64,000 bases of DNA from Bacteroidales bacterium. Lineage in GTDB: Bacteria > Bacteroidota > Bacteroidia > Bacteroidales > UBA12077. Position 1 is the first letter of the stretch; each line of letters starts with the position of its first letter. The notes under the pieces were generated by a model, which was not told the origin of the DNA, did not search any database, and saw nothing but the letters and a program-made list of their open reading frames with translations. Where the stretch lies: assembly GCA_050179935.1 (NCBI GenBank), contig JBFXEQ010000004.1:28432-92431 (forward strand), in the 5' to 3' direction. The translations under genes and the position numbers were made by a program. This document shows, piece after piece, positions 5,657-57,605 of this stretch.

Positions 5657-5676
5657 TTACGTAGGATTTAAAATTT

Positions 5677-6330
5677 TTAACTAATTCTATCAAATATTGA
5701 AATGTCGAGGTTTTTAAAATCCGGAATAACCAGATCGGCTTTGCAAAGCACCTCTTGAGTACCAACACCAATAGCTTTCATTCCCGCGTTATGCGCTGCT
5801 TCAATTCCAGCAGCTGCATCTTCGAACACAATGCAGTTTTTCGGGTTGGCTTTCAGCTCTTTTGCTGCTTTAATAAAAACTTCCGGATCGGGTTTTGAGA
5901 ACGAAATTTTATTGCCATCAATAACGGCATCGAAATAATTACTAAGACCAATTTTTTCGAGGATAATTCCGGAATTTTTACTTGATGAGCCAATTGCAAT
6001 TTTATGATTTGCTGATTTAAGCTTTTTAAGAAAATCACTTACCCCTGGTAAAATATCATCAGGAGTCATTTTAAGAATGTATTCTTTATACCAGTCGTTC
6101 TTTCGTGTTGCCAGCTCAATCTTTTCTTTTTCAGATAAGTTATTTATTTTGCCTATTTCGAGAACAATTTCAAGAGAATCGAGTCGACTAATCCCTTTAA
6201 GGTGTTCGTTCTGATGAATAGTTATATCAAAACCAAGCTCGTTAGCGAGTCTTTTCCAAGCTTGATAGTGAAAAATGGCTGTATCTACAATAACACCATC
6301 TAAATCAAAAATAACAGCTTCTACATTCAT
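5677..6330 (-). CDS. pgmB: beta-phosphoglucomutase (HAD superfamily)
   Basis: 217 aa. HAD motif I VIFDLDGVIVDT, GSSSKN, and motif EDAAAGIEAAHNAGM. Sits between the MFS sugar transporter and the GH65 phosphorylase. Confidence 0.85.
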   Translation of the reverse strand: MNVEAVIFDLDGVIVDTAIFHYQAWKRLANELGFDITIHQNEHLKGISRLDSLEIVLEIGKINNLSEKEKIELATRKNDWYKEYILKMTPDDILPGVSDFLKKLKSANHKIAIGSSSKNSGIILEKIGLSNYFDAVIDGNKISFSKPDPEVFIKAAKELKANPKNCIVFEDAAAGIEAAHNAGMKAIGVGTQEVLCKADLVIPDFKNLDISIFDRIS

Positions 6331-25300: not shown

Positions 25301-25767
25301 TCTAACTGATATCGGGTTATAGAATTTTCTCCATAAAAAAAGATCGTTGAACCCGAAAATATAATTTTTGTAATTACCCCTATATCAGCAGTATCTTTTG
25401 AGAGTGAAATATATTGATAAAAACCTTTCGAGTCCTTTTGAAGATATCCATAGTTATTGTTAGTTCCTACGTAAACAATATCGTTAAATGGATTTTTACG
25501 AACCACAAAAGGAATATATGGTAATTTAATAATATCCCAATTACTGCCATCGAAAATAATTATGCCCCTGCGGTTTGCAAACAGCATATTGTTTTCTTTG
25601 TCCTGACAAATTGACCAGTTTTGATTTTCTATCTCCCTGATTTCTTTGTAATGAGTAATATATGGCGTTCCGTTTTGAGCAAAAGCATATCCATAACCCA
25701 TTAAAGATAAAAGGAGAATAAATTTATAGATTTTCTTTGCTAACATATCCTTGGTATTAGAGGGCAT
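22339..25767 (-). CDS. periplasmic beta-propeller (Reg_prop)/YYY sensor fused through one TM and a coiled coil to a PP2C (SpoIIE-type) phosphatase
   Basis: 1142 aa. Signal peptide, long repeat-rich ectodomain, TM IWFYMIIALAVLALFYIV and coiled coil. The PP2C part has YASRIQRAMLP, SGDFYWI, ADCTGHGVPGA, SDGYADQFGG and DDILVIG. Confidence 0.8.
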   Translation of the reverse strand: MPSNTKDMLAKKIYKFILLLSLMGYGYAFAQNGTPYITHYKEIREIENQNWSICQDKENNMLFANRRGIIIFDGSNWDIIKLPYIPFVVRKNPFNDIVYVGTNNNYGYLQKDSKGFYQYISLSKDTADIGVITKIIFSGSTIFFYGENSITRYQLDEPEKSLRWYAKMSNPFTGLFLTPKNTFINVYDKGLYRIESDTLFPIVTGYLTQKNEILFMLPYNKEKVLVGTDENKLFLFDGIKYYDYTINDDGYLSGSILSEGLVISDSLYAFATLIGGVEIVSKNSGKIVYTINYQNGLPDDEIYSFALDNNNGLWVAHQYGVSRIDLRLPIQNFTTYPGLKGNLITTLWHNNELYVATSDGLFYLTQVRDYADIQVLVKNKPVEEKIRIIPTQSTDETGINAKTDEQKSSKKLFSRLFGKKESSSEKSKSEDTNTAETIAPTNKIIQTQPQYTKKTVSTLKSINYLFKKVDGINEKTKQLISTDYGILAATNSGLFQVTNHKAEPIVKNSYINQISRETANNLYLVATNKGVFSIKIDKNNWVPVYNFIDFTEPIYSIALTDDYHLWLGGDNAVYSFLLDDKSEPKALKTYTIETPFPERYYMQSVNNQIVLFLESGLYYHAISSDSFLPYKPDLWQNDSRIHFILAQYGLPWIKQNNEWVCLSDENKWDESENVFLKIFTDITYIYADSDNNLWVIAENNQLFKISKASEKANTDFTVYFKQITNEEGLSFELSDLVFDAENNAVYFNIVAPYYVKQNSTQYQYFVDGLMSDWSKWSTSTNISLIVKPGDYSISVRAKDLWGNMSDERSLDFTLKAPFIQSIWFYMIIALAVLALFYIVSKVRERKLQHDKNVLEQKVKERTIEIQEQKEEIENQRDELAKNRDEILRQKEEITDSITYASRIQRAMLPLRDHFERTFADHFIFYRPRDIVSGDFYWIAEDHDRVFFAAADCTGHGVPGAFMSMLGISALNEIIRYTTNNLNANQVLSLLREKIKFSLHQTGKEGEAKDGMDIALCIWHKNKMTLEFSGAYNSLYLVKNNVLEEFKADRMPIGIYHVEKENFTNYEIKIEPGNVIYIFSDGYADQFGGPTVTKFKSSGMKKLFTEIAAKPMEEQGQIVEKTFDHWKGNEFQLDDILVIGIRF

Positions 25768-42147: not shown

Positions 42148-43707
42148 TTAGTATTTAGCAAGTATTTTTAAGAACTCAGCATTTGGTTCAGTTCCATCAT
42201 TATCGGCAGAATATTGGGGTTTTAAACGGTTAACAAAATACATATCAAGTTCTTCGCTATTCTTAACCTCAATTTTGCCACGGTAGGTGCAATCGAAAAA
42301 ATCTTTAATATATTCATAAGTAACACCAGAAACATTTACACGTCCTATTTGTCCAAGCTGCTCCATTCTGGCTGCTCTATTAACAGCATCGCCCCATATA
42401 TCATAGGCGAATTTCTTTTTACCAATAACACCTGCAATTACTTCACCTGTATGAATACCAACACGCAATTGCCATACTTCCTGATTATTAGCTTTTTTCT
42501 GTTCACCATACTCTTTAATAAACTTCTGAATTTTAAGTCCTGCAATAGTTACGTCAATCGGATTACTTTTATTGGTTAGTGGTAATCCGCCAGCGCACAT
42601 ATATGCATCACCAATAGTTTTTATTTTTTCGATAAAATGGCCTTCGATAATCTCATCGAATTTCTGAAAATAAGTATTCAATTCGCCAATAAGATCATGC
42701 ACTGGCGTTTTTAATGCCAGTTTAGAAAAATCTTTAAAATCGGTAAATAAAATACTCACCATTTTATATTGCTTTGATCGGGCTGAACCTTTTTTCTTAA
42801 GCTGATTTGCAATCTCGGCAGGTAATATGTTTAGTAAAAGCTCGTCCGATTTATGCTTTTGTTCTTCAAGCAGTTGATTTGTTTTTTCGAGACTTTCAGT
42901 CAATGTAAGAAGACTTTCATTTTTAGCTTCGAGTCTTTCCTCCACTTCTTTTAACGCAGAAACATCCGACTCAATGGCTACAAATTTGATGATCTCATTT
43001 TGCTCATTAAGAATTGGTGTTAGTGTAGTTTGTATCCAGATTGGAGTTTCATAATTGGTAACCCACTTATTTTCATAAACAACGCTCTCATACCCATCTT
43101 TACATTTTTGAATTGCATCCGCTAATTTAGGATTTGTTTTTGCGTTAAAAATATCTGCTTCAAATTTTTCTTTAAACTCGCTGTAGGTAAAACCATACAT
43201 TTTTTCAAATCCCTCGTTAACCCATTCAATAACTCCACCAACACTAATAATTATAACACTATTAGCTGATCTTTTTGCAACTATCGATAATTCGCGCAAT
43301 ACTTCATGTTCAATATAAATATCATGCTGAAACTCGCTTCGGTTTAGAGCTGCATCAAATCGCAACAGCAACTCCTCTTTAGTAAATGGTTTTCGGATAA
43401 TATCTACAATACCATATTCAAAAATACGGTCTAAATTAATTACCGGCGAATATTCTGAAACTATAAGTACAGGAATGCCATGTGTTGCCCTATTTTGTTT
43501 TAACGACATTATACTGTCAATTCCACTTCTAACAAGGGTTTTAGGAAATACAATTATTACATCAGGGCTGTATTCTAAGGCTTTGTTGTATATTTCTTCC
43601 TTATTCGTTTGTATAATATGCAAATCGTCAATTTCATCTATAAGTAAATCATGTAATTGCGTGATTGTTTCGCCATTATCATCAGATACTAAAATTTTAT
43701 AACTCAT
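42148..43707 (-). CDS. receiver-like domain / PAS / coiled coil / class III adenylate cyclase
   Basis: 519 aa. Cyclase motifs VSILFTDFKDFS, KIKTIGDAYM, RVGIHTGEVIAG and YDIWGDAVNRAARME. The Lys/Asp pair is typical of adenine specificity. The N-terminal REC-like fold has ILVSDDN and IRKPF but Phe where the phospho-Asp should be (VIIVFP). Confidence 0.85.
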   Translation of the reverse strand: MSYKILVSDDNGETITQLHDLLIDEIDDLHIIQTNKEEIYNKALEYSPDVIIVFPKTLVRSGIDSIMSLKQNRATHGIPVLIVSEYSPVINLDRIFEYGIVDIIRKPFTKEELLLRFDAALNRSEFQHDIYIEHEVLRELSIVAKRSANSVIIISVGGVIEWVNEGFEKMYGFTYSEFKEKFEADIFNAKTNPKLADAIQKCKDGYESVVYENKWVTNYETPIWIQTTLTPILNEQNEIIKFVAIESDVSALKEVEERLEAKNESLLTLTESLEKTNQLLEEQKHKSDELLLNILPAEIANQLKKKGSARSKQYKMVSILFTDFKDFSKLALKTPVHDLIGELNTYFQKFDEIIEGHFIEKIKTIGDAYMCAGGLPLTNKSNPIDVTIAGLKIQKFIKEYGEQKKANNQEVWQLRVGIHTGEVIAGVIGKKKFAYDIWGDAVNRAARMEQLGQIGRVNVSGVTYEYIKDFFDCTYRGKIEVKNSEELDMYFVNRLKPQYSADNDGTEPNAEFLKILAKY

Positions 43708-43922: not shown

Positions 43923-45152
43923 ATGGGATATACCGTTCTGTTGATTGACCCATTAGAAAAAAATCTGGATGGCTTGAATACTAATCTCTCCAATGCATTA
44001 CCTGATTATATTTTTTTTACTATAAACGATTATACAAACTTAAATAAGCAGATTATAAATTATTCCCCAGATCTTATCATTATTGATATTGATCATACTG
44101 CAACCAACAATAATCATTTTCTCCCTGAATTGATTCAATCGGTTAATGTTCCTGTTATTGCTATATCGCAGGCAACCTCTATTGATGAAATTTTCAATAC
44201 GGGTATAATTTCTTTTATTCAAAAACCTGTTTCGGATATTGCTATAGTGTCGGCGATAAAAACTGCTGTTAAATTTATTTCAACATTTAAATCACTTGAA
44301 CAAAAACAAAACGAGATTGAGATAATAAACAAACATATTGAGGTACAGCACAATAATACATTGAAACAGAGAGACATTATAACTCAAAAAAATAGCGAGA
44401 TAATGGCCGATATAAGATATGCCAGTCGCATTCAGCGAGCCATATTACCCAATACTTCTCATTATGAAGAGCTTACAAATCAGCATTTTATTTTTCATTT
44501 ACCAAAGAGTTTTGTGAGCGGCGATTTTTATTGGATAAAAAGATATAATGACAAACTTATTTTTGCCGTTGGTGATTGCACCGGACATGGAGTTTCGGGA
44601 GCATTAATGCATATGCTGGGAACAGTGTATCTTAATAGTATAATTACCGAAAATACGTTTAAAAATGCAAGTGATATTCTGGAGCAATTGCGAAGTAAAA
44701 TTATGATATTGTTGCATCAGAAAGGGAATATGGGCGAAACTCAGGACGGAATGGATATTGCCCTTTGTATTGTTGATTGTAATAATAAGACAATTGAATT
44801 TGCTGGTGCAAACAATCCGCTTTACTTAATAAGGAATAACGAACTAATTGAATACAAGGGCGACAGAATGCCGGTTGGTATTCATATTAATTTTAATAAA
44901 TCATTTACTAACCACATAATTGAAATAAAAAGCAATGATATTATTTACCTTTTCTCAGATGGTTATGCCGATCAATTTGGAGGCGAATCGGGTAAAAAAT
45001 TCAGGTATAAAAGATTTCAGGATTTATTAATTGAAATAAATCAATTACAGATGTACAGGCAGAAAGAAGCACTCGAACGCGTATTTATTGATTGGTTAGG
45101 TTCTTTAGATCAAGTTGATGATGTACTTGTTTTTGGATTTAAAATAAAATAA
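43923..45152 (+). CDS. receiver-like domain fused to a PP2C (SpoIIE-type) phosphatase
   Basis: 409 aa. REC-like VLLIDP...PDLIIIDID...FIQKPV, then a coiled coil. PP2C motifs YASRIQRAILP, SGDFYWI, GDCTGHGVSGA, SDGYADQFGG and DDVLVFG. Confidence 0.8.
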   Translation: MGYTVLLIDPLEKNLDGLNTNLSNALPDYIFFTINDYTNLNKQIINYSPDLIIIDIDHTATNNNHFLPELIQSVNVPVIAISQATSIDEIFNTGIISFIQKPVSDIAIVSAIKTAVKFISTFKSLEQKQNEIEIINKHIEVQHNNTLKQRDIITQKNSEIMADIRYASRIQRAILPNTSHYEELTNQHFIFHLPKSFVSGDFYWIKRYNDKLIFAVGDCTGHGVSGALMHMLGTVYLNSIITENTFKNASDILEQLRSKIMILLHQKGNMGETQDGMDIALCIVDCNNKTIEFAGANNPLYLIRNNELIEYKGDRMPVGIHINFNKSFTNHIIEIKSNDIIYLFSDGYADQFGGESGKKFRYKRFQDLLIEINQLQMYRQKEALERVFIDWLGSLDQVDDVLVFGFKIK

Positions 45153-45174
45153 CTTTAGCTTTTAAATTTATAAA

Positions 45175-46920
45175 ATGATCACAAAAGCTTTTAAATATTC
45201 ATTACTCTTACTAATACTATTCTCGGAAACTATTTTTGGACAACAAATACCCGATAATATAAAGGCAGAACTTTCCTCGTACGAAGAACAAATAGCCAAG
45301 TTTAAAAACGAAGGAAACAAAAGCCTCGAATTGGAATATTCGAGTAAAGCAGCCTTTTTATGTTGGAATAATCAGGTTTTTGATCAGGCCATCAAAAATT
45401 TTGAAAATGTACTTGATATAAATAAATCACTAAATAATAACAATGGTATATTAATGGCTACCAATTATTTAGGCATGATTTACAACGAATCAGAAAAATA
45501 TCCAAAAGCCATTGAGTATTTTAAAAGTAGCATTTCAATTAGCAAATCATTAAAAAATAAGCCCAATATTGTTTCAGGATTAATTAATATAGCCCAAACC
45601 TACCAGCTATCGGGAAATTATGAGGAGTCGAATAAATCATCATTTGAGGGAATTAATTTATCAAAAGAACTCAATGATATTAAATCCTTACGAACATTTT
45701 ACGGTATTGTGGCCGACAACTATCAGAAGCTTGGTAACTCAGGTAAAAGCATCGAATATTTTGATCTTTTTGCTTCGCTCGATAAATTTATTAAAAATCA
45801 GGAAATTACCGATATTAAAAATCAGTCGGCCAGCGAGGTTAATAAAGCCCAGCAAGAAAAAGCAATAACAGAACAAGAGTTAAACAAACAAACCGATAAA
45901 CTTAAAAAAACCGAAGATTCGCTTGCTGTGGTTGAAGAGTTAACGCGTGAGCAAAAAATGCAACTCGAACTAAAAGAATCGCAAATTAAAGCACAGGAAG
46001 CCCAGCTAAAACTTGAGCGGTTATGGCGAAGCATTTTAATTTACGGATTTATAGCCATATTAATAGTTGCCGGATTACTTTTGTTTTTATACCGAAAAAT
46101 ACGAACCCAGAAATTTCAGATTGAAGATCAACGCGACAAACTTGATCTGCAGAATAAAAAAATCAACTCAAGTATTCAGTATGCACAAAATATACAGCAA
46201 GCTATTTTGCCAACATCGAAGCAATTAGACAAACATTTTGAATATTTTTTGACATACAAACCAAAAGACATTGTTTCAGGAGACTTTTACTGGTATGTTG
46301 AGTTTAATAACCGAGTTTATATTGCCTCAATTGATTGCACCGGCCATGGAGTTCCCGGAGCATTCATGTCGATGATTGGCAGCAGATTATTAAATGAAAT
46401 TGTAATTGAAAAAAACATTCTCGATCCGGCCAAGATACTTTCAACACTTAACGATAAAATTATAACTGCATTACGCCAGAACGAAACTGAAAACGAGGAT
46501 GGTATGGATGTTTGTTTACTTTGTTTCGAAGATATAAATCAGAAGAATAAAGCAATTTTTACCGGTGCAAAAAGACCATTATTGATTTATAAATCAAATA
46601 ATAAGTCTATTGAAGAGATTAAAGGCGACAGGCTGGCCATTGGCGGATCAAAAAACGAAAACAGAGATAAAGATTTTACTAGTCATTCGATAATTATAAA
46701 TAAAGGTGATATTGTATTTTTATCATCCGATGGATTAACAGACCAAAATAATGCTGAAAGAAAGCGTTTTGGTTCTCAACGATTTAATGATCTTGTAATT
46801 AATAATAGTCATAAAAATTTAACTGATCTGAAAACTATTATAGAAAGCGAACTTGAAAATTTTAAACAAGGTGAAGAGCAAAGAGATGATATAACTTTAA
46901 TTGGATTAAAAATAAAATAG
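45175..46920 (+). CDS. TPR-repeat ectodomain / TM / coiled coil / PP2C (SpoIIE-type) phosphatase
   Basis: 581 aa. Signal peptide, TPR-like repeats, TM ILIYGFIAILIVAGLLLFLY. PP2C motifs YAQNIQQAILP, SGDFYWY, IDCTGHGVPGA, SDGLTDQ and DDITLIG. Starts 22 nt after the preceding gene. Confidence 0.8.
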   Translation: MITKAFKYSLLLLILFSETIFGQQIPDNIKAELSSYEEQIAKFKNEGNKSLELEYSSKAAFLCWNNQVFDQAIKNFENVLDINKSLNNNNGILMATNYLGMIYNESEKYPKAIEYFKSSISISKSLKNKPNIVSGLINIAQTYQLSGNYEESNKSSFEGINLSKELNDIKSLRTFYGIVADNYQKLGNSGKSIEYFDLFASLDKFIKNQEITDIKNQSASEVNKAQQEKAITEQELNKQTDKLKKTEDSLAVVEELTREQKMQLELKESQIKAQEAQLKLERLWRSILIYGFIAILIVAGLLLFLYRKIRTQKFQIEDQRDKLDLQNKKINSSIQYAQNIQQAILPTSKQLDKHFEYFLTYKPKDIVSGDFYWYVEFNNRVYIASIDCTGHGVPGAFMSMIGSRLLNEIVIEKNILDPAKILSTLNDKIITALRQNETENEDGMDVCLLCFEDINQKNKAIFTGAKRPLLIYKSNNKSIEEIKGDRLAIGGSKNENRDKDFTSHSIIINKGDIVFLSSDGLTDQNNAERKRFGSQRFNDLVINNSHKNLTDLKTIIESELENFKQGEEQRDDITLIGLKIK

Positions 46921-46947
46921 TATTTTTATAGTAAATTTGTTATTAAC

Positions 46948-47451
46948 TTGAATAATAAAACTTTGCTAACATATAGAGGACCCTTTTATATTGAGCTTAT
47001 TTCGGTTTTTGGCAATAATGTCAGAAACTATACAAGTGCATATGGTAATGCAAACAAAAAGCTCTTTAGGATATTTATTGAATTATCGCAAAATGTATCT
47101 AATTATTCCGAAGATTATCATCTTGTTAATAATGAAAGTCGTATTGGAGTTGGAGAGCTGAAGCTAGTTGAGTGCGATACTCATTTTAAATTTACAACAA
47201 AAAATTTGGTAAAGAAAAGCGATAGCAAAATATTGATTAACCGCTGCGATCTTATAAATCAATCGAGTCTTATGGAATTAAGACAACTCAAAAGAGAACA
47301 ACGAATAAATTCGCCAGGCGAAAAATTTGGCGCCAGAATAGGACTAATTCAGGCAGTAATGTTATCGCAAAACAAACTTGAATATCAATGTGATGAAGTT
47401 GATGATAACTTTGCTTTTTTATCGCTTACAGTTAAAATAGATAAAAATTAA
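46948..47451 (+). CDS. SiaB-like (DUF6272) small GHKL-type protein kinase candidate
   Basis: 167 aa. TTG start, with no in-frame ATG near the N-terminus. LLTYRGPF...KKLFRIFIELSQNVSNYS matches my memory of the SiaB/DUF6272 N-terminal pattern. Positioned directly upstream of a DUF1987 gene, as in siaB-siaC. Confidence 0.6.
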   Translation: MNNKTLLTYRGPFYIELISVFGNNVRNYTSAYGNANKKLFRIFIELSQNVSNYSEDYHLVNNESRIGVGELKLVECDTHFKFTTKNLVKKSDSKILINRCDLINQSSLMELRQLKREQRINSPGEKFGARIGLIQAVMLSQNKLEYQCDEVDDNFAFLSLTVKIDKN

Positions 47452-47463
47452 TGATTATATAAT

Positions 47464-47850
47464 ATGGAAAATATTTCTATAAAAAGTTCACCTGAAACAC
47501 CTTATTTTCCTGAGGTAAATTTCGATGCATCGACCGGAATATGCGAAATAGCAGGCGAATCTTATATGGAGGAAACATATAAGTTTTATCTTCCACTTAC
47601 AACCTGGATTAAAGAATACATAGCCAATGTAAAAGGAAAATTAGAGCTTAACATTAAATTGATTTACTTAAATACCAGTTCTACTAAATGCATTTTGGAT
47701 ATTCTGGAAACCTTAAAAGATTATGAAGATAATGGTGGAGATACTAAAGTAGTTTGGTTTTATGACAAAGAAGATCCAGATATGATTGATGAAGTAGAAG
47801 ATTTTGAGGCCGAATCGGGCATTAAAATTGAAATGCGTGAACTCGTTTAA
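47464..47850 (+). CDS. DUF1987 / SiaC-like regulatory phosphoprotein candidate
   Basis: 128 aa. TPYFPEVNFDASTGICEIAGESYMEETYKFYLPLTTWIKEY and LNTSSTKCILDIL match the DUF1987 pattern as I remember it. Starts 12 nt after the kinase-like gene. Confidence 0.7.
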   Translation: MENISIKSSPETPYFPEVNFDASTGICEIAGESYMEETYKFYLPLTTWIKEYIANVKGKLELNIKLIYLNTSSTKCILDILETLKDYEDNGGDTKVVWFYDKEDPDMIDEVEDFEAESGIKIEMRELV

Positions 47851-49056: not shown

Positions 49057-51153
49057 TTATTTTATTCCCAAGTTTGTAAGTAATGCTTCAATCTGTGGTT
49101 CGCGACCTCTAAAAGCCACATACATTTCCATTGCGTCTTTAATACCATTTTTAGCAAGAACATTTTCGCGGAATGATTTTGCAGTTGCCTGATCGAAAAT
49201 ATTCGTTTCTTTAAATGTCTGGAAAGCATCGTTATCTAGAACACCAGCCCATGTATATGAATAATATCCAGCATCATATCCACCCATAATGTGGTTAAAA
49301 TAAGTAGCCCTGTATCTCGAATATATCTCAGGTATTAAACCAATACTGCTTAAATATTCTTTTTCAAATTTCATAACATCCAAATTTGGATCTTCTTCGG
49401 TCATCATATGAAATTTAATATCAAGCAACGATGCTGCCAACACTTCTGTCATTGCAAAACCCTGATTAAAATTAGCACTTGCTTTAAGTTTAGCAATTAA
49501 TTCATCAGGAATTACCTCACCTGTTTGGTAATGTTTAGCATACATTTTTAACACCTCGGGTTCAAAAGCCCAATGCTCCATTATTTGCGATGGTAATTCA
49601 ACGAAATCCCAAGCAATATAAGAAGCCGGATAAGATGTTTCGGCAAATATTCCATCCAAAGCATGTCCAAATTCGTGAAACATAGTTTCTACTTCATCAA
49701 TACTTAATAAAGCAGGTGCGTTTCCAGATGGTCGTGTAACATTTAATACATTATTTACCAATGGATAAACTTCTTTTCCATCTTTAGTAAATTTATGATC
49801 ACGGTAACTTCCGCACCATGCGCCACCACGTTTACTTGCTCTAGGATGCATATCCATAAAGAACAATGCAAGATGCGAACCGTCGGCTTCTTTTACTTCA
49901 TAAACTGTAGTTTCTGGATGTGGTACAGGAACACCATCTATTTGAGTAAAGGTGATTCCGTAAAGTTTATTTGCTACCGTAAAAATACCCTGACGAACAT
50001 TCTCTAACTCAAAATATGGTCTAACCTCACTTTCATCGAGATTATATTTTTCTTTTCTTAGTTTCTCTGTGTAATAAAACCAGTCGTGTGGTTCCAATTT
50101 AAAATTACCTCCTTCTTTATCAATCATCGCTTGTAATGCAGCTCTTTCCTCGATTGCTTTTGGCAAAATGCCTTTCCACAATTGATCCTGTAATAATTCG
50201 AAAACACGTTTTGGATTTTTAGCCATTCTTGGTTCAGTTGCATAAGAAGCGTGATTTTCATATCCCAACAGCTTAGCTCTTTTTACTCTCAGATTTAAAA
50301 TCTTTTTTAAGATCTCTTTATTATCGTATTCATCATTATGATTACCTTGGTTTACATATGCATCGTAAATTTGTTTTCTTAATTCACGATTGTCAGCATA
50401 ACTAATAAATGGTATTAAACTAGGTTTTTGAAGAGTAAATACCCATTTCCCTTCAAGACTATCATTTGCTGCAGCTTCGGCAGCTGCTTGTATAGAAGCT
50501 TCTGGCAGACCAGCAAGATCTTCTTTTTTATCAATAATTAATTTAAAATTATTTACTTCAGCTAAAATGTTCTGGCTAAATTGCAATGTTAATGTTGATA
50601 ACTCCTGATTTATGCCTTTTAATATTTCTTTTTTATCTTCAGGTAAACCAGCACCACTGCGAATAAAGCTTTTATAATCATTTTCTAAAAGAAAGAGTTG
50701 TTCTTCGTTCAGGTTATATTTATCCTTATTTTCATAAACTACCTTAATTCTTTCAAAATATCTTGGGTCTAATCGTATTTCGTCTCCATGAGCTGAGAGT
50801 TTAGGTGCAATTTCCTGCGCTAAAGTTTGTAGTTCATCGCTAATATTCACACCGTTAAATTCGTAAAATACAGTAATTACTTTTCCTAAAAGCTCACCCG
50901 CATGATACGATGCTTCAATGGTATTTTCGTAAGTTGGTTCTTCGGGATTAGAAAGAATAGCCTCCATTTCGGCTTTGTGTTGTTTCATTGCTTCCTCAAT
51001 AGCAGGAGCAAAATGTTCGATTTTAATCTTTTCGTAAGGAGCAACCTCAAATGGCGTATCATATTTAGCCAATAAAGGATTTACCTCAGCCTTCTTTGTA
51101 AAGGAGTTAAAAACTACTCCTGCGATCATAAAAAATAAAAGGATTTTTTTCAC
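49057..51153 (-). CDS. dcp: M3-family peptidyl-dipeptidase
   Basis: 698 aa. Signal peptide and zinc motif HEFGHALDG. Confidence 0.85.
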   Translation of the reverse strand: MKKILLFFMIAGVVFNSFTKKAEVNPLLAKYDTPFEVAPYEKIKIEHFAPAIEEAMKQHKAEMEAILSNPEEPTYENTIEASYHAGELLGKVITVFYEFNGVNISDELQTLAQEIAPKLSAHGDEIRLDPRYFERIKVVYENKDKYNLNEEQLFLLENDYKSFIRSGAGLPEDKKEILKGINQELSTLTLQFSQNILAEVNNFKLIIDKKEDLAGLPEASIQAAAEAAANDSLEGKWVFTLQKPSLIPFISYADNRELRKQIYDAYVNQGNHNDEYDNKEILKKILNLRVKRAKLLGYENHASYATEPRMAKNPKRVFELLQDQLWKGILPKAIEERAALQAMIDKEGGNFKLEPHDWFYYTEKLRKEKYNLDESEVRPYFELENVRQGIFTVANKLYGITFTQIDGVPVPHPETTVYEVKEADGSHLALFFMDMHPRASKRGGAWCGSYRDHKFTKDGKEVYPLVNNVLNVTRPSGNAPALLSIDEVETMFHEFGHALDGIFAETSYPASYIAWDFVELPSQIMEHWAFEPEVLKMYAKHYQTGEVIPDELIAKLKASANFNQGFAMTEVLAASLLDIKFHMMTEEDPNLDVMKFEKEYLSSIGLIPEIYSRYRATYFNHIMGGYDAGYYSYTWAGVLDNDAFQTFKETNIFDQATAKSFRENVLAKNGIKDAMEMYVAFRGREPQIEALLTNLGIK

Positions 51154-51224
51154 AGTATTTAAATTTTAGTTAGTAGTATTTTTTTATTATTTGATTCTAT
51201 TATTAATAAATAGTTTAAAGCTAT

Positions 51225-51635
51225 TTAATTATTTAAATGTTCGAACAACTCAAGTGTTTCTCCATTCGGCCCTTCAAAGAATATAATTTTAACACCATTA
51301 TAAATTGCAGGTAAATCAATCGGTTTTGCAGATTTAAAATGAACACCATTTTGTTTTAGTAAATCACAGATTTGATCTAAATCATTTACTTCGAAAGAAA
51401 TATGATCAATTATTCCGTGTGTTTTATTAACAAGAGATTTATCAGAAGGTTCGATAAACTCAACCAGTAAGTTGTTAAGTTTTACGAAAACAAGTTTTTT
51501 CGAGGTTCCATCAGGTTTATGAAGGATGGTTTCGAAATCAAACCTAAACCCCAAATTTTCGGTATAGAAATTTTTAGATTGCTCAGCATCTGTAGTTAAT
51601 ATTCCAATATGTGCTAATCCTTTTATGCTTCCCAT
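51225..51635 (-). CDS. VOC/glyoxalase-family protein
   Basis: 136 aa. LAHIGILTTD...DHISFEV pattern of paired beta-alpha-beta-beta-beta modules. Confidence 0.7.
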   Translation of the reverse strand: MGSIKGLAHIGILTTDAEQSKNFYTENLGFRFDFETILHKPDGTSKKLVFVKLNNLLVEFIEPSDKSLVNKTHGIIDHISFEVNDLDQICDLLKQNGVHFKSAKPIDLPAIYNGVKIIFFEGPNGETLELFEHLNN

Positions 51636-51727
51636 AAATTACCCACAACAACCATTTTTATTGAAGCATCAAATTAAAAGGTTATTACAATTAAATCAAA
51701 ATAAGTTCCTATGTTTTTAATCAGAAA

Positions 51728-52216
51728 TTATAAAAATTTGACATACACCACTTTGCCATCATTTTTATCATAAAAATCTTCGAAAAATGCTTTTTCGATA
51801 TAATTCATTTTAAGGTAAAAAGAACGAGTTGGGTGATATAATTCCTTTGAAGATGTTTCGACATAAACACCACAACCACCAATAGCTTTTATAGCTTGTT
51901 CTGTATTATCCATAAGTTCTTTACCAATACCCATTCCTCTGAAATCCTGGTGAGTAGCAATCCAATAAAGATCGAAACTATGTTTTGTACAAGGTATGCG
52001 TCCATAACAAGTGTAACCAACTACCTTACCTTCAATTTCGGCGAAGATAAAATCATAGCCACTGGCTTTGCCTGTTTCCACAGTTTCTTCGACCAAACCC
52101 ATAGCTACTTCAATTTCTTCGGTATTAAAAAAATTTGTAGATCGAACTATTTCACCAACAGCCTCGATATCAGAAGGTTTAACTTCATTTCGATATGTTA
52201 CATTATTATTTTTCAT
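51728..52216 (-). CDS. GNAT-family N-acetyltransferase
   Basis: 162 aa. Acetyl-CoA motif FRGMGIGKELM. Its start overlaps the stop of the upstream ATP-grasp gene by 4 nt. Confidence 0.75.
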   Translation of the reverse strand: MKNNNVTYRNEVKPSDIEAVGEIVRSTNFFNTEEIEVAMGLVEETVETGKASGYDFIFAEIEGKVVGYTCYGRIPCTKHSFDLYWIATHQDFRGMGIGKELMDNTEQAIKAIGGCGVYVETSSKELYHPTRSFYLKMNYIEKAFFEDFYDKNDGKVVYVKFL

Positions 52217-53181
52217 CGTTGTCCATCGTAAATTATTTCAGAGATAACTTCGTTAAAACCAACTCCTCCTTGATTGCAAGCAACAAAAAATCCAGCATCT
52301 GGCGAAATGCATGGGTTTGCATTAATTTCTAACACATAGGGGTTATTATCTTTATCTACCCGAATATCAACTCTAACATAACCACGAAGATTGAATTTAT
52401 TCCAACAATCGAGACTAATTTGCTTAACTTTTTCGAGCAATGGTTTGTCCTTTTCTGGAAAATCAAAAGTGCGTCGTGTATTTTGGTATTCGAACGAATC
52501 CTCATCCCATTTAGCTTTATAACCCAACACGAATGGTTTATCTTCGGGATATTCGTAGTATTTCATCTCGGCAGGAGGCATAACTCGTGGACCTTTTTTT
52601 CCACCCAATACAGAAATATTAAATTCACGACCATGAATATATTCTTCGATAAAAAACCCTGCATCCTTATTATTTTCGATATATTCTTTCAGTTTTGGGT
52701 CATTTCCATAAAAAACTGCATCTTCAGAAATACCTACAGAAGCATCTTCACCATATGGTTTTACAATATATCTTTTATCAGGATTTAGTTTATTAGTTTC
52801 GTTTGCAGCAAACCATTCGCCTGTAGGAATACCTGCAGCAACAAATGCTTCTTTGGCTTTCATTTTATGCGAGGTAAGGTACAATGCAAATGAGTCTGAG
52901 CCTGAAAATGGGATATCAAGACTATCGAACAATGCCGGAGCTATAAAACTTAAGAATCCCTTACCATCAACTGTTTCTACAAGGTTAAATATAAAATCAG
53001 GTTTAATTTTTAAGATTGAATCTTTTACACGTTGCATATCCAGATCAAAATCCCCCCTAAAGACTTCGTATCCAAGATTTATAAATTCTTTTTCAACTAC
53101 ATCAGCTTCTTCTAAAACATCCAATTCATCCTGCAACGCATTTTCAGATATTCGATTATGAATGATAAGTGCTCTTTTCAT
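52213..53181 (-). CDS. ATP-grasp ligase, D-Ala-D-Ala-ligase-like (paralogue 2)
   Basis: 322 aa. Ddl-like order: pre-ATP-grasp LDIPFSGSDSFALYLTSHKMKAKE, then VKPYGEDASVGIS, EEYIHGREFNISVLG and YVLEINANP. Confidence 0.75.
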   Translation of the reverse strand: MKRALIIHNRISENALQDELDVLEEADVVEKEFINLGYEVFRGDFDLDMQRVKDSILKIKPDFIFNLVETVDGKGFLSFIAPALFDSLDIPFSGSDSFALYLTSHKMKAKEAFVAAGIPTGEWFAANETNKLNPDKRYIVKPYGEDASVGISEDAVFYGNDPKLKEYIENNKDAGFFIEEYIHGREFNISVLGGKKGPRVMPPAEMKYYEYPEDKPFVLGYKAKWDEDSFEYQNTRRTFDFPEKDKPLLEKVKQISLDCWNKFNLRGYVRVDIRVDKDNNPYVLEINANPCISPDAGFFVACNQGGVGFNEVISEIIYDGQR

Positions 53182-53196
53182 TATTCTGCTTATTTT

Positions 53197-54189
53197 TTAT
53201 TTAATTCGACCTTCAGTTTTCAATCTCTTAATAGCTGCCTCCATAATAAATCCCATCAGTTGTTGGTATTCTATTCCCTTCAACCTAGATAAAATCGGCA
53301 AATCAGAATGAACCGGATGTAATCCTGCTAATGGATTTACCTCAATAAAATTACACACCCCCTTATCATCGTAGCGAACATCTACCCTGCCTCCATCAAC
53401 ACAATTGAGAATGCGCCATGAATCGAGCGCAACTTTTTCGCATTCTTTGGCTAATTTATCTTCGGCCAAATGATAATCAACAAGCTCGAGGTAATTATCT
53501 TTATTATGAAATGAGTAAACTCCTTGTTCGGCTTTATTGTTTAATAGTATCTCCATAACTCCGGCCGATCTTGCTTCGAGCCCTGAACCAATTACACCAA
53601 CTGTAAATTCGCGACCTGACAAGTATTTTTCCACCAATACTGGTTGCTTAAATTTCGATAAAAGCAACAAGCATCGTTCTTTTAGCTCCTCAATATTATT
53701 TATAACAGAGCCTGCGTAAATCCCTTTTCCAGTTCCTTCGGCTAGAGGTTTTGCAAACAACGGAAATTTTATTTTTACCTTTTCTATATCTTCGGGTTTT
53801 TCAACAACAAAGAACTCAGCTGTAGGAATACCTGCATCACGAATTACTCTTTTTGTTGTAGCCTTATCAAGTGTAAGCGCCAATGTTAATGGGCCCGAAA
53901 AGACATAAGGAATGTTCCATGCATCAAGCAATGCGGGTACTTGTGCTTCGCGACCTATACCATACATTCCTTCGCAAATATTAAACACCAGCTCCCATCG
54001 ATCGCCTTTTGCAAGACAACGTGTAAGTTCCTTGACATTCCCAATTCTTACTGTATCAAATCCTAATTTTTTCAATGTATTGTCGATGGCATCAATCGTA
54101 TCTTCCTTATCGAACTCAGCAGCTTCTTCTTTTGTAAAACCTTCTTTAAGATAATCGCTTTGCAAATCGTAGGTTATTCCTATTCTCAT
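53197..54189 (-). CDS. ATP-grasp ligase, D-Ala-D-Ala-ligase-like (paralogue 1)
   Basis: 330 aa. GREAQVPALLDAWNIPYVFSGPLTLALTLDKATTK, FAKPLAEGTGKGI, EKYLSGREFTVGVIG and FIEVNPLAG. Confidence 0.75.
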   Translation of the reverse strand: MRIGITYDLQSDYLKEGFTKEEAAEFDKEDTIDAIDNTLKKLGFDTVRIGNVKELTRCLAKGDRWELVFNICEGMYGIGREAQVPALLDAWNIPYVFSGPLTLALTLDKATTKRVIRDAGIPTAEFFVVEKPEDIEKVKIKFPLFAKPLAEGTGKGIYAGSVINNIEELKERCLLLLSKFKQPVLVEKYLSGREFTVGVIGSGLEARSAGVMEILLNNKAEQGVYSFHNKDNYLELVDYHLAEDKLAKECEKVALDSWRILNCVDGGRVDVRYDDKGVCNFIEVNPLAGLHPVHSDLPILSRLKGIEYQQLMGFIMEAAIKRLKTEGRIK

Positions 54190-54204
54190 GTTGATTTTTG
54201 GTAT

Positions 54205-54242
54205 TAAAAAACTTCCCGAAAGATATTTCGCTTTCAGGAAGT
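54205..54242 (-). terminator. strong intrinsic terminator or attenuator between kamA and the ATP-grasp genes
   Basis: On the minus strand: ACTTCCTGAAAG-8 nt-CTTTCGGGAAGT (12 bp including one U.G) followed directly by TTTTTT. It ends about 16 nt before the ATP-grasp start codon. Confidence 0.65.
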
Positions 54243-54266
54243 AATTTATAAATAATTTATCAAATC

Positions 54267-55529
54267 TTACTCTTTTTGATTTGGATAATAGAATGTTTTT
54301 CCTTCGTAGTTTTTCAAAACTACTTGTTCATCGTCGATGCTTTGCAAATAGTCTGGTAATAAAGGAATTTTACCACCACCGCCAGGGGCATCGATTACAT
54401 AATGCGGAATTGCATAACCCGAAGTAAAACCACGTAATCCTTTTATTATCTCAAGCCCTTTTGAAACAGGTGTTCTAAAGTGAGCAGATCCAGGTATTGG
54501 ATCACATTGATACAAATAATAAGGTCGTACCCTTGCTTTTAGCAATTTGTGAGTTAATTCTTTAAATATCGAAACTTCATCATTAACACCTTTAAGCAAT
54601 ACTGTTTGGCTTCCTAATGGAATACCTGCATCTGCTAAACGGGTACATGCAAAATGAGTTTCTGGTGTCAACTCATCAGGATGAGTAAAGTGAATGCTAA
54701 TCAATAAAGGATGATATTTTTTAAGGATTTTTAAAAGCATAGGGGTAATACGCTGAGGTAATACGACAGGCACTTTTGTACCAATACGGATTATTTCAAC
54801 ATGCTCAATAGCTCTAAGTTTTGATAATAAATACTCAAGTCGCGCATCGGATAACGTTAAAGGATCGCCACCTGAAATTAGCACATCACGAACCTTCGTA
54901 TTATTACGTATATAATCGATTGCAATATCCCATTCGTTAATACTCGAATGACATTTGTCTTTTTTCGAAACCATGTGCGAACGGGTACAGTATCTGCAAT
55001 AGGTTGAACAAAAACCAGTAACTAAGAACAGAACACGGTCGGGATATCTGTGTACTATATGGTTTACAGGGCTATAATTCTCTTCGCCAAGAGGATCAGC
55101 TTTTTCCTCCGGAGTGGTAATTAACTCATCAAAAACAGGAACAACTGATTTTCTTATAGCCTGATTTGAATTGTTTGGATCAAGTAAACTTGCATAATAA
55201 GGAGTAATCCTTATGGGAAGATTAAATCCATTATCAGTTGGTTTAATCTCATCATCGGATAAATGCAAGATTGTTTGCAACTGGGCATAACTTGTGTAGC
55301 TATTTTGTATTTGCCAACGCCAGTTGTTCCATTCGTTGAGAGAAGTGCCGGGAAAATGTCGAGCTAAAAATTGGAGAGTTCTTTCATTTACGGGAAAATC
55401 CGGTTTACTCTGTTTTTCAGAAGTGAGTTTTAAATTTATATTTTGCAAATAGTTTAACCCACTCGGAGGTTCTACATTTGCTTCCTCATATGATATAGAG
55501 GACTCTGTATTCATTTTTCCTGAATTCAT
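54267..55529 (-). CDS. kamA: lysine 2,3-aminomutase (radical SAM, PLP-dependent)
   Basis: 420 aa. Radical SAM cluster CSTYCRYCTR, WRWQ motif, YQCDPIPG, and VIDAPGGGGK containing the putative PLP-binding Lys. Closely collinear with the clostridial KamA sequence as I remember it. Confidence 0.85.
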   Translation of the reverse strand: MNSGKMNTESSISYEEANVEPPSGLNYLQNINLKLTSEKQSKPDFPVNERTLQFLARHFPGTSLNEWNNWRWQIQNSYTSYAQLQTILHLSDDEIKPTDNGFNLPIRITPYYASLLDPNNSNQAIRKSVVPVFDELITTPEEKADPLGEENYSPVNHIVHRYPDRVLFLVTGFCSTYCRYCTRSHMVSKKDKCHSSINEWDIAIDYIRNNTKVRDVLISGGDPLTLSDARLEYLLSKLRAIEHVEIIRIGTKVPVVLPQRITPMLLKILKKYHPLLISIHFTHPDELTPETHFACTRLADAGIPLGSQTVLLKGVNDEVSIFKELTHKLLKARVRPYYLYQCDPIPGSAHFRTPVSKGLEIIKGLRGFTSGYAIPHYVIDAPGGGGKIPLLPDYLQSIDDEQVVLKNYEGKTFYYPNQKE

Positions 55530-55805
55530 TTAAAATTAAAGTTTGACTTTTTATGTTAATTTTTAAGTTCATAATTGAGATTATTTATTAACCTCTTAAT
55601 TTTTAATTTATAATGCAATTTTATACATTTTATCAATCCGATATACACAAATCGCGCCAAAGAGTCCAATAATTATTAACCGATTTTTATCATTTAAAAC
55701 ACTATATATCTGCGATTTAAACTAATTCTGTTAATAATTAGTATGCTTTTTCGACATCGTTACTTTTTTATTATACCTTTACATCCTTGATTAAACCTGA
55801 CTTAT

Positions 55806-56252
55806 ATGATATATGATCAAATTTCGAATGCTGAAAAATATTTTTGTCTTCATCCCTTATTCGAAAAAGCATTTCAGTATTTGTTAAAGAACGATTTTTT
55901 AAAAATACCTGCCGGTAAATACCAAATTGAGCAGGACTCATTATTTGCGCTTGTTAATAATTATTTTTCTAAAAGTATAGACGAAAGTTTTGCTGAAAGT
56001 CACAAAAAATATATCGACATTCAGCTTGTCATTTCAGGGAAAGAAAGAATGGGATTTGGATTGCTTGATGATTTCACCCATGAACAGTACGATGCAGAAA
56101 AAGACTTACAGAAACATGCCGGCAAATTAAATTTTATCGATGTTGAAAAAAATCGATTTGTACTATTTTTCCCAAATGATATCCATATGCCCGGACTGCA
56201 GGTAGATAAACCTGAAGAAATAAAAAAGGTGGTTATAAAGGTTGCCATATAA
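55806..56252 (+). CDS. YhcH/YjgK/YiaL (DUF386) family protein
   Basis: 148 aa. AESHKKYIDIQLVISGKERMG and FPNDIHMP are typical of the family. Confidence 0.7.
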   Translation: MIYDQISNAEKYFCLHPLFEKAFQYLLKNDFLKIPAGKYQIEQDSLFALVNNYFSKSIDESFAESHKKYIDIQLVISGKERMGFGLLDDFTHEQYDAEKDLQKHAGKLNFIDVEKNRFVLFFPNDIHMPGLQVDKPEEIKKVVIKVAI

Positions 56253-56272
56253 CTCTGAAAAAAAAGTCGGAG

Positions 56273-56599
56273 TTATTCTTTTATCATAGTTAAAAGCATT
56301 TTAAACCTATCACTGGCTTTTACTGCATGCGTGTTATTTGCTGGCATAATGATTGATTGCCCTTGAGTAAGTTCATAGGTTTTTTTATTTATTATGATAG
56401 TTGCTTTGCCTTCGATTACCTGTACTAATGCATCAAATGGAGCTGTATGCTCACTTAACTCCTGCCCTTTGTCGAATGCAAATAAAGTGATATTACCTGT
56501 TGGTTTTTGAATAATACGCTTACTAACTATTCCATCAGTTGAATAATCAACCTTTTGACAAAAATCAAAAATATCGGAGGTATTTACTTTGTCGTTCAT
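56273..56599 (-). CDS. cupin-domain protein
   Basis: 108 aa from MNDKVNTSD. SEHTAPFDALVQVIEGKA...PANNTHAV cupin motifs. The track's longer form (to 56653) adds 18 low-complexity residues. Confidence 0.6.
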   Translation of the reverse strand: MNDKVNTSDIFDFCQKVDYSTDGIVSKRIIQKPTGNITLFAFDKGQELSEHTAPFDALVQVIEGKATIIINKKTYELTQGQSIIMPANNTHAVKASDRFKMLLTMIKE

Positions 56600-56738
56600 A
56601 CTATTTTTTAAGGTGATGTAGTAATTATACAATTTAATTAATTTAAAGTTCATTTATGGTTACATATTTTTGTTAAAACGGAAAAATTGGCTTATTTCAC
56701 ACCTTAATTAATTCTTATCTTATTAAAATAAATACTCC

Positions 56739-57605
56739 ATGAAAATGTTTGTTGCATTTTGGTTTGTTGTTTTTGTCTTTTTCTTTGGATTAATCCCTTT
56801 CTGGGTATTATACAGAATTGCTGATTTCATTTATTTTCTTTTATTTAAGATTTTTGGTTACCGAAAAAAAGTAATCATTAGCAACCTGAAAAAGGTTTTC
56901 CCTTTAAAATCAGAGAAAGAAATACAACAGATTTTATCGGCAGTTTATTTAAATCTTTCGGATGTTTTAATTGAAGGTATTAAGGGGTTTACTATGCTAC
57001 GTAAACAGGTAGTAAAACGTCATAAAATTACAAATCCTGAAATACTGGAATCAATTTACCAATCAGGCGTAAGTATTATAGGTGTTACCGGACATTACTG
57101 CAACTGGGAATGGGGAAGCTTATCGGCCAGCTTGCAAACGCAATATGAACCTGTGGCATTCTATAAGCCCCTTAGTAATAAATGGATTGATCGGTTTATG
57201 CACTGGAGCCGCTCAAAATACGGAACAAAACTAACATCAATATACGAAACCGCTGATACATTCAATAACAGACAGAACATAAAAAGTATATATTTAATGG
57301 CTGCAGATCAGAATCCTGCAAAAAAGAAGAAGTCGATATGGGTTGATTTTTTAGGGATTGATACCGCTTTTTTAGATGGACCTGAACGATATGCAAAAAA
57401 ATATAATTACCCGGTTGTTTACATGGATGTTCAAAGAAAAAAACGGGGATTTTATACCATTGAGCTTTCTATTATTACTTTAAATCCTTCGGAACTTCCT
57501 GATGGAGAAATAACTAAAAGATATGCAGCCAAACTCGAATCGGTTATTTTAAACGAACCAGGCAATTGGTTATGGTCGCATAAACGCTGGAAAATGAAAC
57601 GCTAA
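56739..57605 (+). CDS. LpxL/HtrB-family lysophospholipid (lipid A late) acyltransferase
   Basis: 288 aa. N-terminal TM and HYCNWEW (HX4D/E-like acyltransferase motif region). Confidence 0.7.
   Translation: MKMFVAFWFVVFVFFFGLIPFWVLYRIADFIYFLLFKIFGYRKKVIISNLKKVFPLKSEKEIQQILSAVYLNLSDVLIEGIKGFTMLRKQVVKRHKITNPEILESIYQSGVSIIGVTGHYCNWEWGSLSASLQTQYEPVAFYKPLSNKWIDRFMHWSRSKYGTKLTSIYETADTFNNRQNIKSIYLMAADQNPAKKKKSIWVDFLGIDTAFLDGPERYAKKYNYPVVYMDVQRKKRGFYTIELSIITLNPSELPDGEITKRYAAKLESVILNEPGNWLWSHKRWKMKR

Follow-up and report, generated by a model that had tools for sequence, protein, structure and literature searches.

We describe a four-gene cassette on the minus strand of a 64,000-nucleotide stretch of DNA from a Bacteroidales bacterium (GenBank assembly GCA_050179935.1, contig JBFXEQ010000004.1, positions 28,432 to 92,431), referred to below as the window. 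The cassette encodes a KamA-family aminomutase, two ATP-grasp enzymes resembling D-alanine–D-alanine ligase (Ddl), here called AG1 and AG2, and a GNAT-family acetyltransferase. We propose, with a probability of roughly 0.55, that the four genes together constitute a single biosynthetic cassette whose product is a small cytoplasmic amide containing beta-lysine. Each of the enzyme families is known; neither the pathway nor its product or wide distribution seems to have been characterised. No description of the cassette, nor of any characterised pathway combining an aminomutase, an ATP-grasp ligase and a GNAT, was found by full-text literature searches, in agreement with an earlier note on this DNA which knew of no such pathway; the amidoligase survey of Iyer et al. 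(2009) lies outside that coverage. The published Desulfovibrio vulgaris sigma-54 regulome makes no mention of the cassette genes.

A conserved gene cassette in at least eight phyla

The genes are read in the order kamA (54267-55529, minus strand, 420 aa; Radical_SAM and LAM_C domains in Pfam/NCBIfam), AG1 (53197-54189, minus, 330 aa; Pfam Dala_Dala_lig_C, E=1.8e-24), AG2 (52213-53181, minus, 322 aa; Dala_Dala_lig_C, E=2.2e-19) and GNAT (51728-52216, minus, 162 aa; Pfam Acetyltransf_1 and Acetyltransf_7). A gap of 77 nt separates kamA from AG1; the 15-nt gap between the ligase genes and the 4-nt overlap of AG2 with the GNAT gene, which the earlier note had reported for four genes on one strand, are confirmed by the open reading frames.

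A profile scan with AG1 over GTDB representatives, one genome per species, yielded at least 494 relatives, and 80 loci were kept for comparison, a gene being scored only where the contig was long enough to show it. KamA is encoded immediately ahead of AG1, on the same strand, in 72 of 77 assessable loci and AG2 immediately after it in 66 of 67, while GNAT is present in 55 of 63 and the complete four-gene set in 49 of 61. Dozens of unrelated genomes share this order and strand, far more than chance would give, and the cassette is a real unit. Synteny in relatives, on which the earlier note had made its proposal depend, is thus kept across at least eight phyla, with neighbouring genes repeatedly fused (see below). 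The window fits the consensus of the 70 AG1, 63 AG2, 66 KamA and 45 GNAT sequences drawn from the 80 loci, and it has both the gene order and strand of the cassette and an AG1 of the type 'AEFD ... REAQVPA ... EGTGKG ... hSDLP'.

Carriers are found in Bacteroidota, Desulfobacterota (Syntrophales, Desulfobacterales and others), Acidobacteriota including Aminicenantes, Spirochaetota, Planctomycetota, KSB1, Sumerlaeota and Bacillota (Clostridia), together with one Competibacterales bin. In a neighbour-joining tree of AG1 the Bacteroidota group together and the remaining phyla interleave with Desulfobacterota, which suggests some lateral spread. Judged by the titles of their records, the carriers come mostly from aquifers, freshwater lakes, fens, sulfidic springs and digesters. 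These sources are mostly anoxic and fresh or low in salt, and therefore provide a weak argument against a dedicated salt osmolyte; together with the dedicated sigma-54 response regulator found in Desulfobacterota, they weakly disfavour the compatible solute that had been suggested as the product.

Clustering of open reading frames across the 80 loci gave no exporter or transporter, precursor peptide, carrier protein, efp or regulator as a conserved neighbour, the sole extra component being a GNAT-deacetylase fusion. Nor is efp linked to the cassette in these contigs: tblastn of the window and 88 loci (89 sequences) gave no match to a hand-entered sequence of Escherichia coli elongation factor P (EF-P).

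Fusions join every adjacent pair of genes

A HMMER search of 1.84 billion representative proteins returned 657 at E<=1e-30, and we inspected the best 150 of these (50%-identity representatives). At least 15 of these 150 are AG1-AG2 fusions in operon order. A search with a KamA-AG1 fusion as query gave about 40 clusters of such fusions, 716-879 aa in length, one of which, in the isolate genome of Syntrophobacteraceae bacterium DRH4, has AG2 and GNAT encoded after it. On one metagenomic contig (L088) the entire system consists of two polypeptides, [KamA-AG1] and [AG2-GNAT]. Since each adjacent pair of genes is fused somewhere, there is strong evidence that the four activities belong to one pathway and that AG1 acts directly with KamA. 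An apparent KamA-AG1 fusion at another locus (L069) was discarded as an out-of-frame open reading frame in a high-GC contig.

More distant architectures were also seen. A tandem double ATP-grasp sister clade (P0157, P0162-P0164, P0180, P0202, P0212 and others) has two AG1-like halves at 24-40% identity, apparently from high-GC organisms to judge by amino-acid composition. In P0214 (980 aa) an AG1-like domain follows a long leucine-rich-repeat region of eukaryotic style, and may represent a eukaryotic or host-associated acquisition. At four loci (L083-L086) an AG1-like domain is fused ahead of KamA in a protein of 716-730 aa that lacks AG2 and GNAT as partners; this fusion adjoins a cyanophycinase-like S51 peptidase and an adenylating protein of 432-435 aa resembling F390 synthetase/PaaK.

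KamA

KamA matches the lysine 2,3-aminomutase of Clostridium subterminale (PDB 2A5H) with E=2.4e-126 over residues 60-415, at about 60% identity. In this alignment CSTYCRYC (174-181) falls on Cys125, Cys129 and Cys132 of 2A5H, which we take to be the [4Fe-4S] ligands, Arg183 on Arg134, presumably the contact for the substrate carboxylate, and Lys387 (GGGGK) on Lys337, presumably the attachment point of pyridoxal 5'-phosphate (PLP). Asp343 (YQCD) and Asp380 (VIDAPGG) correspond to Asp293 and Asp330, which we understand to bind the epsilon-ammonium group of lysine and to be substituted in glutamate 2,3-aminomutase. All 66 operon-linked KamA proteins keep, without exception, the cluster cysteines and the equivalents of Arg134, Asp293, Asp330 and Lys337. 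The earlier note had called the enzyme a lysine-type 2,3-aminomutase from its CSTYCRYCTR, YQCD and VIDAPGGGGK motifs; all three are present and align to 2A5H, and the invariance of the substrate residues upholds the assignment. We predict with good confidence that KamA makes beta-lysine from L-lysine, probably as the 3S isomer by similarity to the clostridial enzyme.

Among NCBIfam models the AblA-type TIGR03820 ranks first with 474.5 bits, under its cut-off of 525.4; the glutamate aminomutase (428.7 bits, cut-off 650), arginine aminomutase (381 bits, cut-off 600) and EpmB (243.5 bits, cut-off 369.3) models are missed as well, and the sole model passed is one for a KamA-family subfamily (341 bits against a cut-off of 199). 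The structural zinc site of the clostridial enzyme is missing, the equivalent of Cys268 being Glu in the window and Cys in none of the 66 homologues, and the C-terminal CxCxxC is likewise found in none of the 66, the window protein stopping about 33 residues past GGGGK. The loss of this site, which is not a catalytic feature, marks the operon KamA proteins as a distinct short-tailed clade.

The N-terminal extension of about 60 residues is a variable leader, in which a (D/E)-E-P-P-(S/G) motif stands out in the 66-protein alignment: its 'EPP' (Glu20-Pro21-Pro22 in the window, codons at 55464-55472, minus strand) is near-universal across many phyla, and the neighbouring residues vary freely. Translation of di-proline motifs of this kind is assisted by EF-P, and the motif could equally be a docking motif.

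The two ATP-grasp ligases

The ligases had been read as paralogues that resemble Ddl, and this holds, if distantly: AG1 and AG2 share 27% identity and differ from each other about as much as from Ddl. Ddl is the best family for both in NCBIfam and in the PDB. An AlphaFold (AF2) model of AG1 has a confidence (pLDDT) of 87, with low confidence confined to the P-loop and omega-loop, and the 50 matches listed for it by Foldseek in the PDB are all D-Ala-D-Ala or D-Ala-D-lactate ligases, with TM-scores of 0.7-0.8 and about 25% identity.

The active sites were compared by alignment to the DdlB proteins of Yersinia and Pseudomonas and by conservation within the AG1 and AG2 families. Both ligases retain the equivalents of Lys144, Lys215, Arg255, Asp257, Glu270 and Asn272, conserved throughout their families, which we take to be the residues serving ATP, magnesium and the acyl-phosphate. 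Positions that we assume to confer specificity for D-Ala have changed. DdlB Ser150 is Thr in AG1 and Ala in AG2, and Tyr216 is Asp/Glu in AG1 and Trp in AG2; Gly276 and Ser281 are kept in AG1 and replaced by Cys and Ala, respectively, in AG2; and Leu282 is an invariant Asp in AG1 (motif hSDLP) and Gly in AG2. AG1 and AG2 are therefore active-looking ligases, which we predict to be of new specificity and not peptidoglycan Ddl enzymes. The invariant acidic residues gained at the second-substrate site of AG1 hint at compatibility with a cationic nucleophile such as beta-lysine. As to the substrates themselves, the active-site residues show no more than that the second-substrate pockets of both ligases differ from that of Ddl.

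Homologues of both proteins are publicly annotated as 'D-alanine--D-alanine ligase', and with Ddl as their closest fold and family one alternative would be that they are just that, or that kamA is the first gene of a lysine fermentation pathway with coincidental neighbours. This is the least probable of the explanations we considered. Both ligases fall far under every Ddl cut-off, AG1 scoring 145.3 bits and AG2 104.4 against PRK01372 (cut-off 243) and 114 and 88 bits, respectively, against TIGR01205 (cut-off 246), and Pfam detects Dala_Dala_lig_C alone in each, with Dala_Dala_lig_N undetected at E<=0.01. Besides the changes at the D-Ala-specific positions, the ligases are fused to KamA or to GNAT in many genomes. 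There is no third Ddl-like gene in the window. Lysine fermentation fares no better, kamDE, kdd, kce and kal being missing from the window: Pfam scans of window open reading frames of at least 150 aa and of operon neighbours gave no match for a B12-dependent aminomutase, 3,5-diaminohexanoate dehydrogenase, Kce, Kal or an aaRS-like EpmA, so that the earlier statement that these functions are absent holds for the window.

The acetyltransferase and PDB entry 2R7H

GNAT matches PDB entry 2R7H, deposited as a 'putative D-alanine N-acetyltransferase', with E=3.1e-31. A protein 99% identical to 2R7H is encoded in a locus with the order sigma-54 activator-KamA-AG1-AG2-GNAT, and by this near-identity the orphan entry is the GNAT of this operon. 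The complete genome of Desulfovibrio mangrovi (CP104208) carries the same operon, at about 3.558-3.564 Mb, plus a deacetylase fusion. Other cultivable carriers are Oleidesulfovibrio alaskensis G20, from which 2R7H comes, and Draconibacterium. Cultivable sulfate reducers thus have the cassette, and a structure is already available for one component. The NCBIfam matches of GNAT at E<=0.01 are RimI-like and aminoglycoside-acetyltransferase-like only, all of them sub-threshold.

An aminomutase followed by an acetyltransferase is also the logic of AblA/AblB, and AblA is the top equivalog for KamA, so that a plain AblAB pathway with both ATP-grasp genes as unrelated passengers deserves mention; we consider it highly improbable, although somewhat less so than ordinary Ddl enzymes. 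KamA falls short of the AblA cut-off, and the 162-aa GNAT has no AblB-type match in NCBIfam at E<=0.01, belonging instead to the 2R7H family. The ligases lie between kamA and GNAT in almost all loci and are found fused to both, and the largely freshwater and low-salt origin of the carriers also speaks against this explanation.

A deacetylase and signal-dependent regulation in relatives

In 10 of 90 loci, though not in the window, a protein of about 580 aa lies within the operon or ends it, in three different positions. It combines an N-terminal GNAT-like domain with a deacetylase domain (Hist_deacetyl, E=5.6e-76). Among solved structures this domain is nearest to acetylpolyamine amidohydrolases (E=4e-66), which it matches with roughly double the bit score that it reaches for HDAC6-type proteins. 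Acetylpolyamine amidohydrolases act on small N-acetylated aliphatic amines. It is chiefly because such a deacetylase occurs in the operon that we favour a small-molecule product whose amine is reversibly acetylated.

Seven Desulfobacterota loci have an orthologous NtrC-family sigma-54 activator ahead of the operon, and a sigma-54 promoter, TGGCAT-N5-TTGCT, was found in five of the six Desulfobacterota upstream regions searched. The cassette is therefore signal-regulated in this phylum. Nine Desulfobacterota loci (L031, L039, L045, L053, L059, L060, L062, L079 and L081) have one or two small, weakly DUF5818-like proteins of about 80-150 aa, some with signal peptides, encoded between the sigma-54 promoter and kamA; none were found in the Bacteroidota loci or in the window.

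Proposed pathway and product

In the pathway that we propose, KamA would first convert L-lysine to beta-lysine, probably 3S, by radical-SAM/PLP chemistry, and this step is strongly supported. AG1 would then act on or with the KamA product, forming a first amide bond via an acyl-phosphate, and AG2, probably paired with AG1, would form a second in the same way; the fold, the conserved catalytic residues and the gene fusions are our grounds for these two steps, which would yield a molecule resembling a di- or tripeptide, with beta-lysine at its core. The 2R7H-type GNAT would acetylate an amine that is still free, the most plausible site being the epsilon- or beta-amino group of the beta-lysyl unit, and in about one in ten operons the deacetylase would take the acetyl group off again. 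Neither an exporter nor a precursor peptide or carrier protein is conserved beside the cassette, so that the product is probably a regulated metabolite retained in the cell; it could serve, for example, to protect against stress, as a nitrogen-rich solute or as a polyamine-like cation buffer. The likeliest product is a cytoplasmic N-acetylated beta-lysine di- or tripeptide. We see about an even chance that it is an undescribed, polyamine-like compound of this kind, N-acetylated in a reversible manner, and that it is a common and regulated constituent of the cytoplasm of anaerobes in at least eight phyla.

Several observations weigh against a small acetylated amide. No metabolite has been tied to the cassette, and the substrates of the ligases are not readable from sequence. 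GNAT is missing beside the ligases in 8 of 63 assessable loci, and acetylation may therefore not be obligatory. AG1 retains 55-67% identity across phyla, which is high for a small-molecule enzyme and would also suit a conserved macromolecular target; AG2 has weak, sub-threshold Pfam matches to ATP-grasp families of the tubulin-tyrosine-ligase type and of the type associated with sugar transfer; and the best named relative of GNAT is RimI, a protein N-terminal acetyltransferase, yet at 35.7 bits against a cut-off of 86.4. The variant with a cyanophycinase-like peptidase at L083-L086 would also suit a polymer.

One alternative is that the cassette modifies a conserved protein, adding beta-lysine and a further residue to a Lys, a Glu or a C-terminus (of EF-P or a ribosomal protein, for example) with GNAT as the capping enzyme. 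It would then be a functional analogue of EpmA/EpmB or RimK/RimI, and the two Ddl-fold ligases would constitute a route to beta-lysylation other than EpmA. KamA-family enzymes do provide beta-lysine for EF-P modification in gamma-proteobacteria. The unusual conservation of both AG1 and KamA between phyla (55-70% identity), the RimI and tubulin-tyrosine-ligase resemblances, the EPP(S/G) di-proline in the KamA leader, which may be a link to EF-P, and the DUF5818-like proteins encoded ahead of kamA in nine Desulfobacterota loci are all compatible with this idea. However, neither efp nor any other candidate target gene is linked to the cassette in the 89 sequences or conserved as its neighbour, and the DUF5818-like proteins, several of which have signal peptides, are missing from Bacteroidota and from the window. 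Both ligases are of Ddl type and not of RimK/LysX type, and to our knowledge the characterised Ddl-type enzymes act on small molecules; KamA scores far higher as a lysine 2,3-aminomutase (474 bits) than as EpmB (243 bits); and the operon deacetylase is nearest to acetylpolyamine amidohydrolases, whose substrates are small. We therefore regard a protein target as unlikely, while ranking it first among the alternatives to a small amide.

A little less likely again is that the ligases work iteratively and produce a polymer or oligomer, such as oligo-beta-lysine or a cyanophycin-like co-polymer with an acidic amino acid, that would serve as a nitrogen store, with GNAT capping or regulating its ends. 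AG1 is weakly similar to the ATP-grasp domain of cyanophycin synthetase (NF010623, E=6.8e-12 over about 110 residues of the ATP-grasp core; PDB 7WAC, E=6.7e-6), the fusion of an AG1-like domain with KamA at L083-L086 stands beside the S51 peptidase and the F390-synthetase-like enzyme, and NtrC-family sigma-54 control in Desulfobacterota would suit a function linked to nitrogen. Set against this, an S51 peptidase accompanies the four-gene cassette in none of the 80 loci, the cyanophycin synthetase score of AG1 is 44.4 bits where the cut-off is 877, with no counterpart to the Mur-ligase-like domain of that enzyme, and we know of no Ddl-type enzyme that is processive. A deacetylase of the acetylpolyamine-amidohydrolase type also suits a small molecule better than a polymer.

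If the reading of the cassette as a source of a small beta-lysine amide is correct, beta-lysine metabolism gains a further branch, next to those of lysine fermentation, N-epsilon-acetyl-beta-lysine, EF-P modification and streptothricin-type antibiotics, and a function can be assigned to hundreds of genes now called 'D-alanine--D-alanine ligase' and to 2R7H. The metabolite would be common to environmentally abundant anaerobes, including Bacteroidales, Syntrophales, Desulfobacterales, Spirochaetota and Acidobacteriota, and the presence of the cassette in cultivable sulfate reducers makes the question directly testable. The mis-annotation as Ddl also matters for metagenome counts of cell-wall ligases or ligases of the vancomycin-resistance type.

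Genomic context in the window

The kamA-AG1 spacer contains a terminator-like hairpin (54211-54242, minus strand; found by a consensus scan) with a 12-bp stem and a T-run, both of which are also kept in the closest relative (L013). It is a candidate partial terminator or attenuator that may set the ratio of kamA to ligase expression or uncouple kamA from the ligase genes. At another locus (L002, 6570-7000) the same spacer is expanded to about 430 nt and contains, three times over, a repeat that reads GTGGCGAAAAAAAGACAC...AAAGCCACAAA, for which we suspect a REP-like or miniature-element insertion. The 276 nt of intergenic sequence upstream of kamA (55530-55805, minus strand) are presumed to contain the promoter, and matches to sigma-70-like sequences there are weak and rarer than in shuffled sequence. 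A lysine riboswitch or other RNA element 5' of kamA was ruled out, since the interval 51000-57000 has no Rfam match at E<=1. Identity as a defence system was likewise rejected, PADLOC giving zero matches for all four proteins.

The flanking genes are functionally unrelated to the cassette. They comprise a VOC/glyoxalase-family protein, an M3 peptidase and a class IV aminotransferase on one side, and on the other a divergent YhcH-family gene, which is the next after the 276-nt intergenic region, a cupin and a gene resembling lipid A acyltransferase. The G+C content of the window is about 33%, and its nearest relatives are uncultured aquifer Bacteroidota of the GWA2_31_9b and GWC2_33_15 type.

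Elsewhere in the window, a SiaABC-like module (43923-47850) consists of two SpoIIE/PP2C phosphatases, one with a receiver domain and one with TPR repeats, a DUF6272 protein and a SiaC-family phosphoprotein; at L090 a similar module plus a GGDEF protein abuts the operon. As this module was seen only in the window, at L090 and in the close relative L013, its proximity to the operon looks coincidental and it was not retained as a partner of the cassette. PP2C-type signalling proteins are abundant in the window and include a SpoIIE phosphatase of 1142 aa with a Reg_prop domain (22339-25767), and a further protein joins receiver, PAS and adenylate/guanylate cyclase domains (42148-43707). A maltose/maltodextrin cluster (1488-7643, minus strand) encodes a cyclomaltodextrinase-type GH13 enzyme, a GH65 phosphorylase, a HAD hydrolase that is probably a beta-phosphoglucomutase, and an MFS transporter.

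Comparison with known systems

One of the closest known parallels is AblA/AblB, which makes N-epsilon-acetyl-beta-lysine in methanogens and green sulfur bacteria: in both systems a KamA-family aminomutase and then an acetyl-CoA-dependent N-acetyltransferase are encoded in one operon, with a product that is, or here would be, cytoplasmic. The present cassette differs in its two interposed Ddl-fold ligases, in a GNAT of 2R7H and not AblB type, in a KamA that is under the AblA cut-off and lacks the zinc site, and in carriers that mostly come from non-saline habitats. A second parallel is the pathway to N-acetylglutaminylglutamine amide (NAGGN; Ngg/AsnO), in which a GNAT activity and an ATP-grasp peptide ligase yield an N-acetylated dipeptide solute, recalling the AG2-GNAT fusion of L088. 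NAGGN involves neither a beta-amino acid nor an aminomutase, and the domain order and ATP-grasp subfamily of the two systems may differ.

With the Ddl and Van ligases, AG1 and AG2 share the three-domain ATP-grasp fold, the residues that stabilise ATP, magnesium and acyl-phosphate and presumably the acyl-phosphate mechanism. They are set apart by identity of only about 25%, by the replacement of D-Ala-binding positions, by their occurrence as two paralogues often fused in tandem and by their context, which is mur and fts genes for Ddl and KamA and GNAT here. In cyanophycin synthetase and cyanophycinase, too, an ATP-grasp enzyme forms an amide bond with a basic amino acid, and the sister fusion of an AG1-like domain with KamA stands beside an S51 peptidase, but the four-gene cassette has neither the Mur-ligase-like domain nor the peptidase.

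Two other systems pair a radical-SAM enzyme acting on lysine with ATP-dependent ligation. In pyrrolysine-type PylB/PylC/PylD, a radical-SAM rearrangement of lysine is followed by ATP-grasp joining to a second amine, and AG2 weakly matches the PylC model. The score, 28.3 bits, is however far under the cut-off of 248.3, and there is no PylD, neither pylB nor pylD being found in the window. PylB belongs to a different radical-SAM family and its product is 3-methylornithine. In EpmB/EpmA, beta-lysine from a KamA-family enzyme is ligated to an amine at the expense of ATP; there the ligase EpmA is a lysyl-tRNA-synthetase paralogue, whereas here it is an ATP-grasp enzyme, the EpmB score of KamA is below cut-off and efp is unlinked.

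Finally, the optional fifth gene invites comparison with acetylpolyamine amidohydrolase and the polyamine N-acetyltransferases, since its deacetylase, together with the GNATs, resembles an acetylation/deacetylation pair acting on aliphatic amines. In the cassette, however, the deacetylase is joined to an N-terminal GNAT-like domain and lies inside an operon of beta-lysine ligases, in relatives of the window locus though not at that locus itself.

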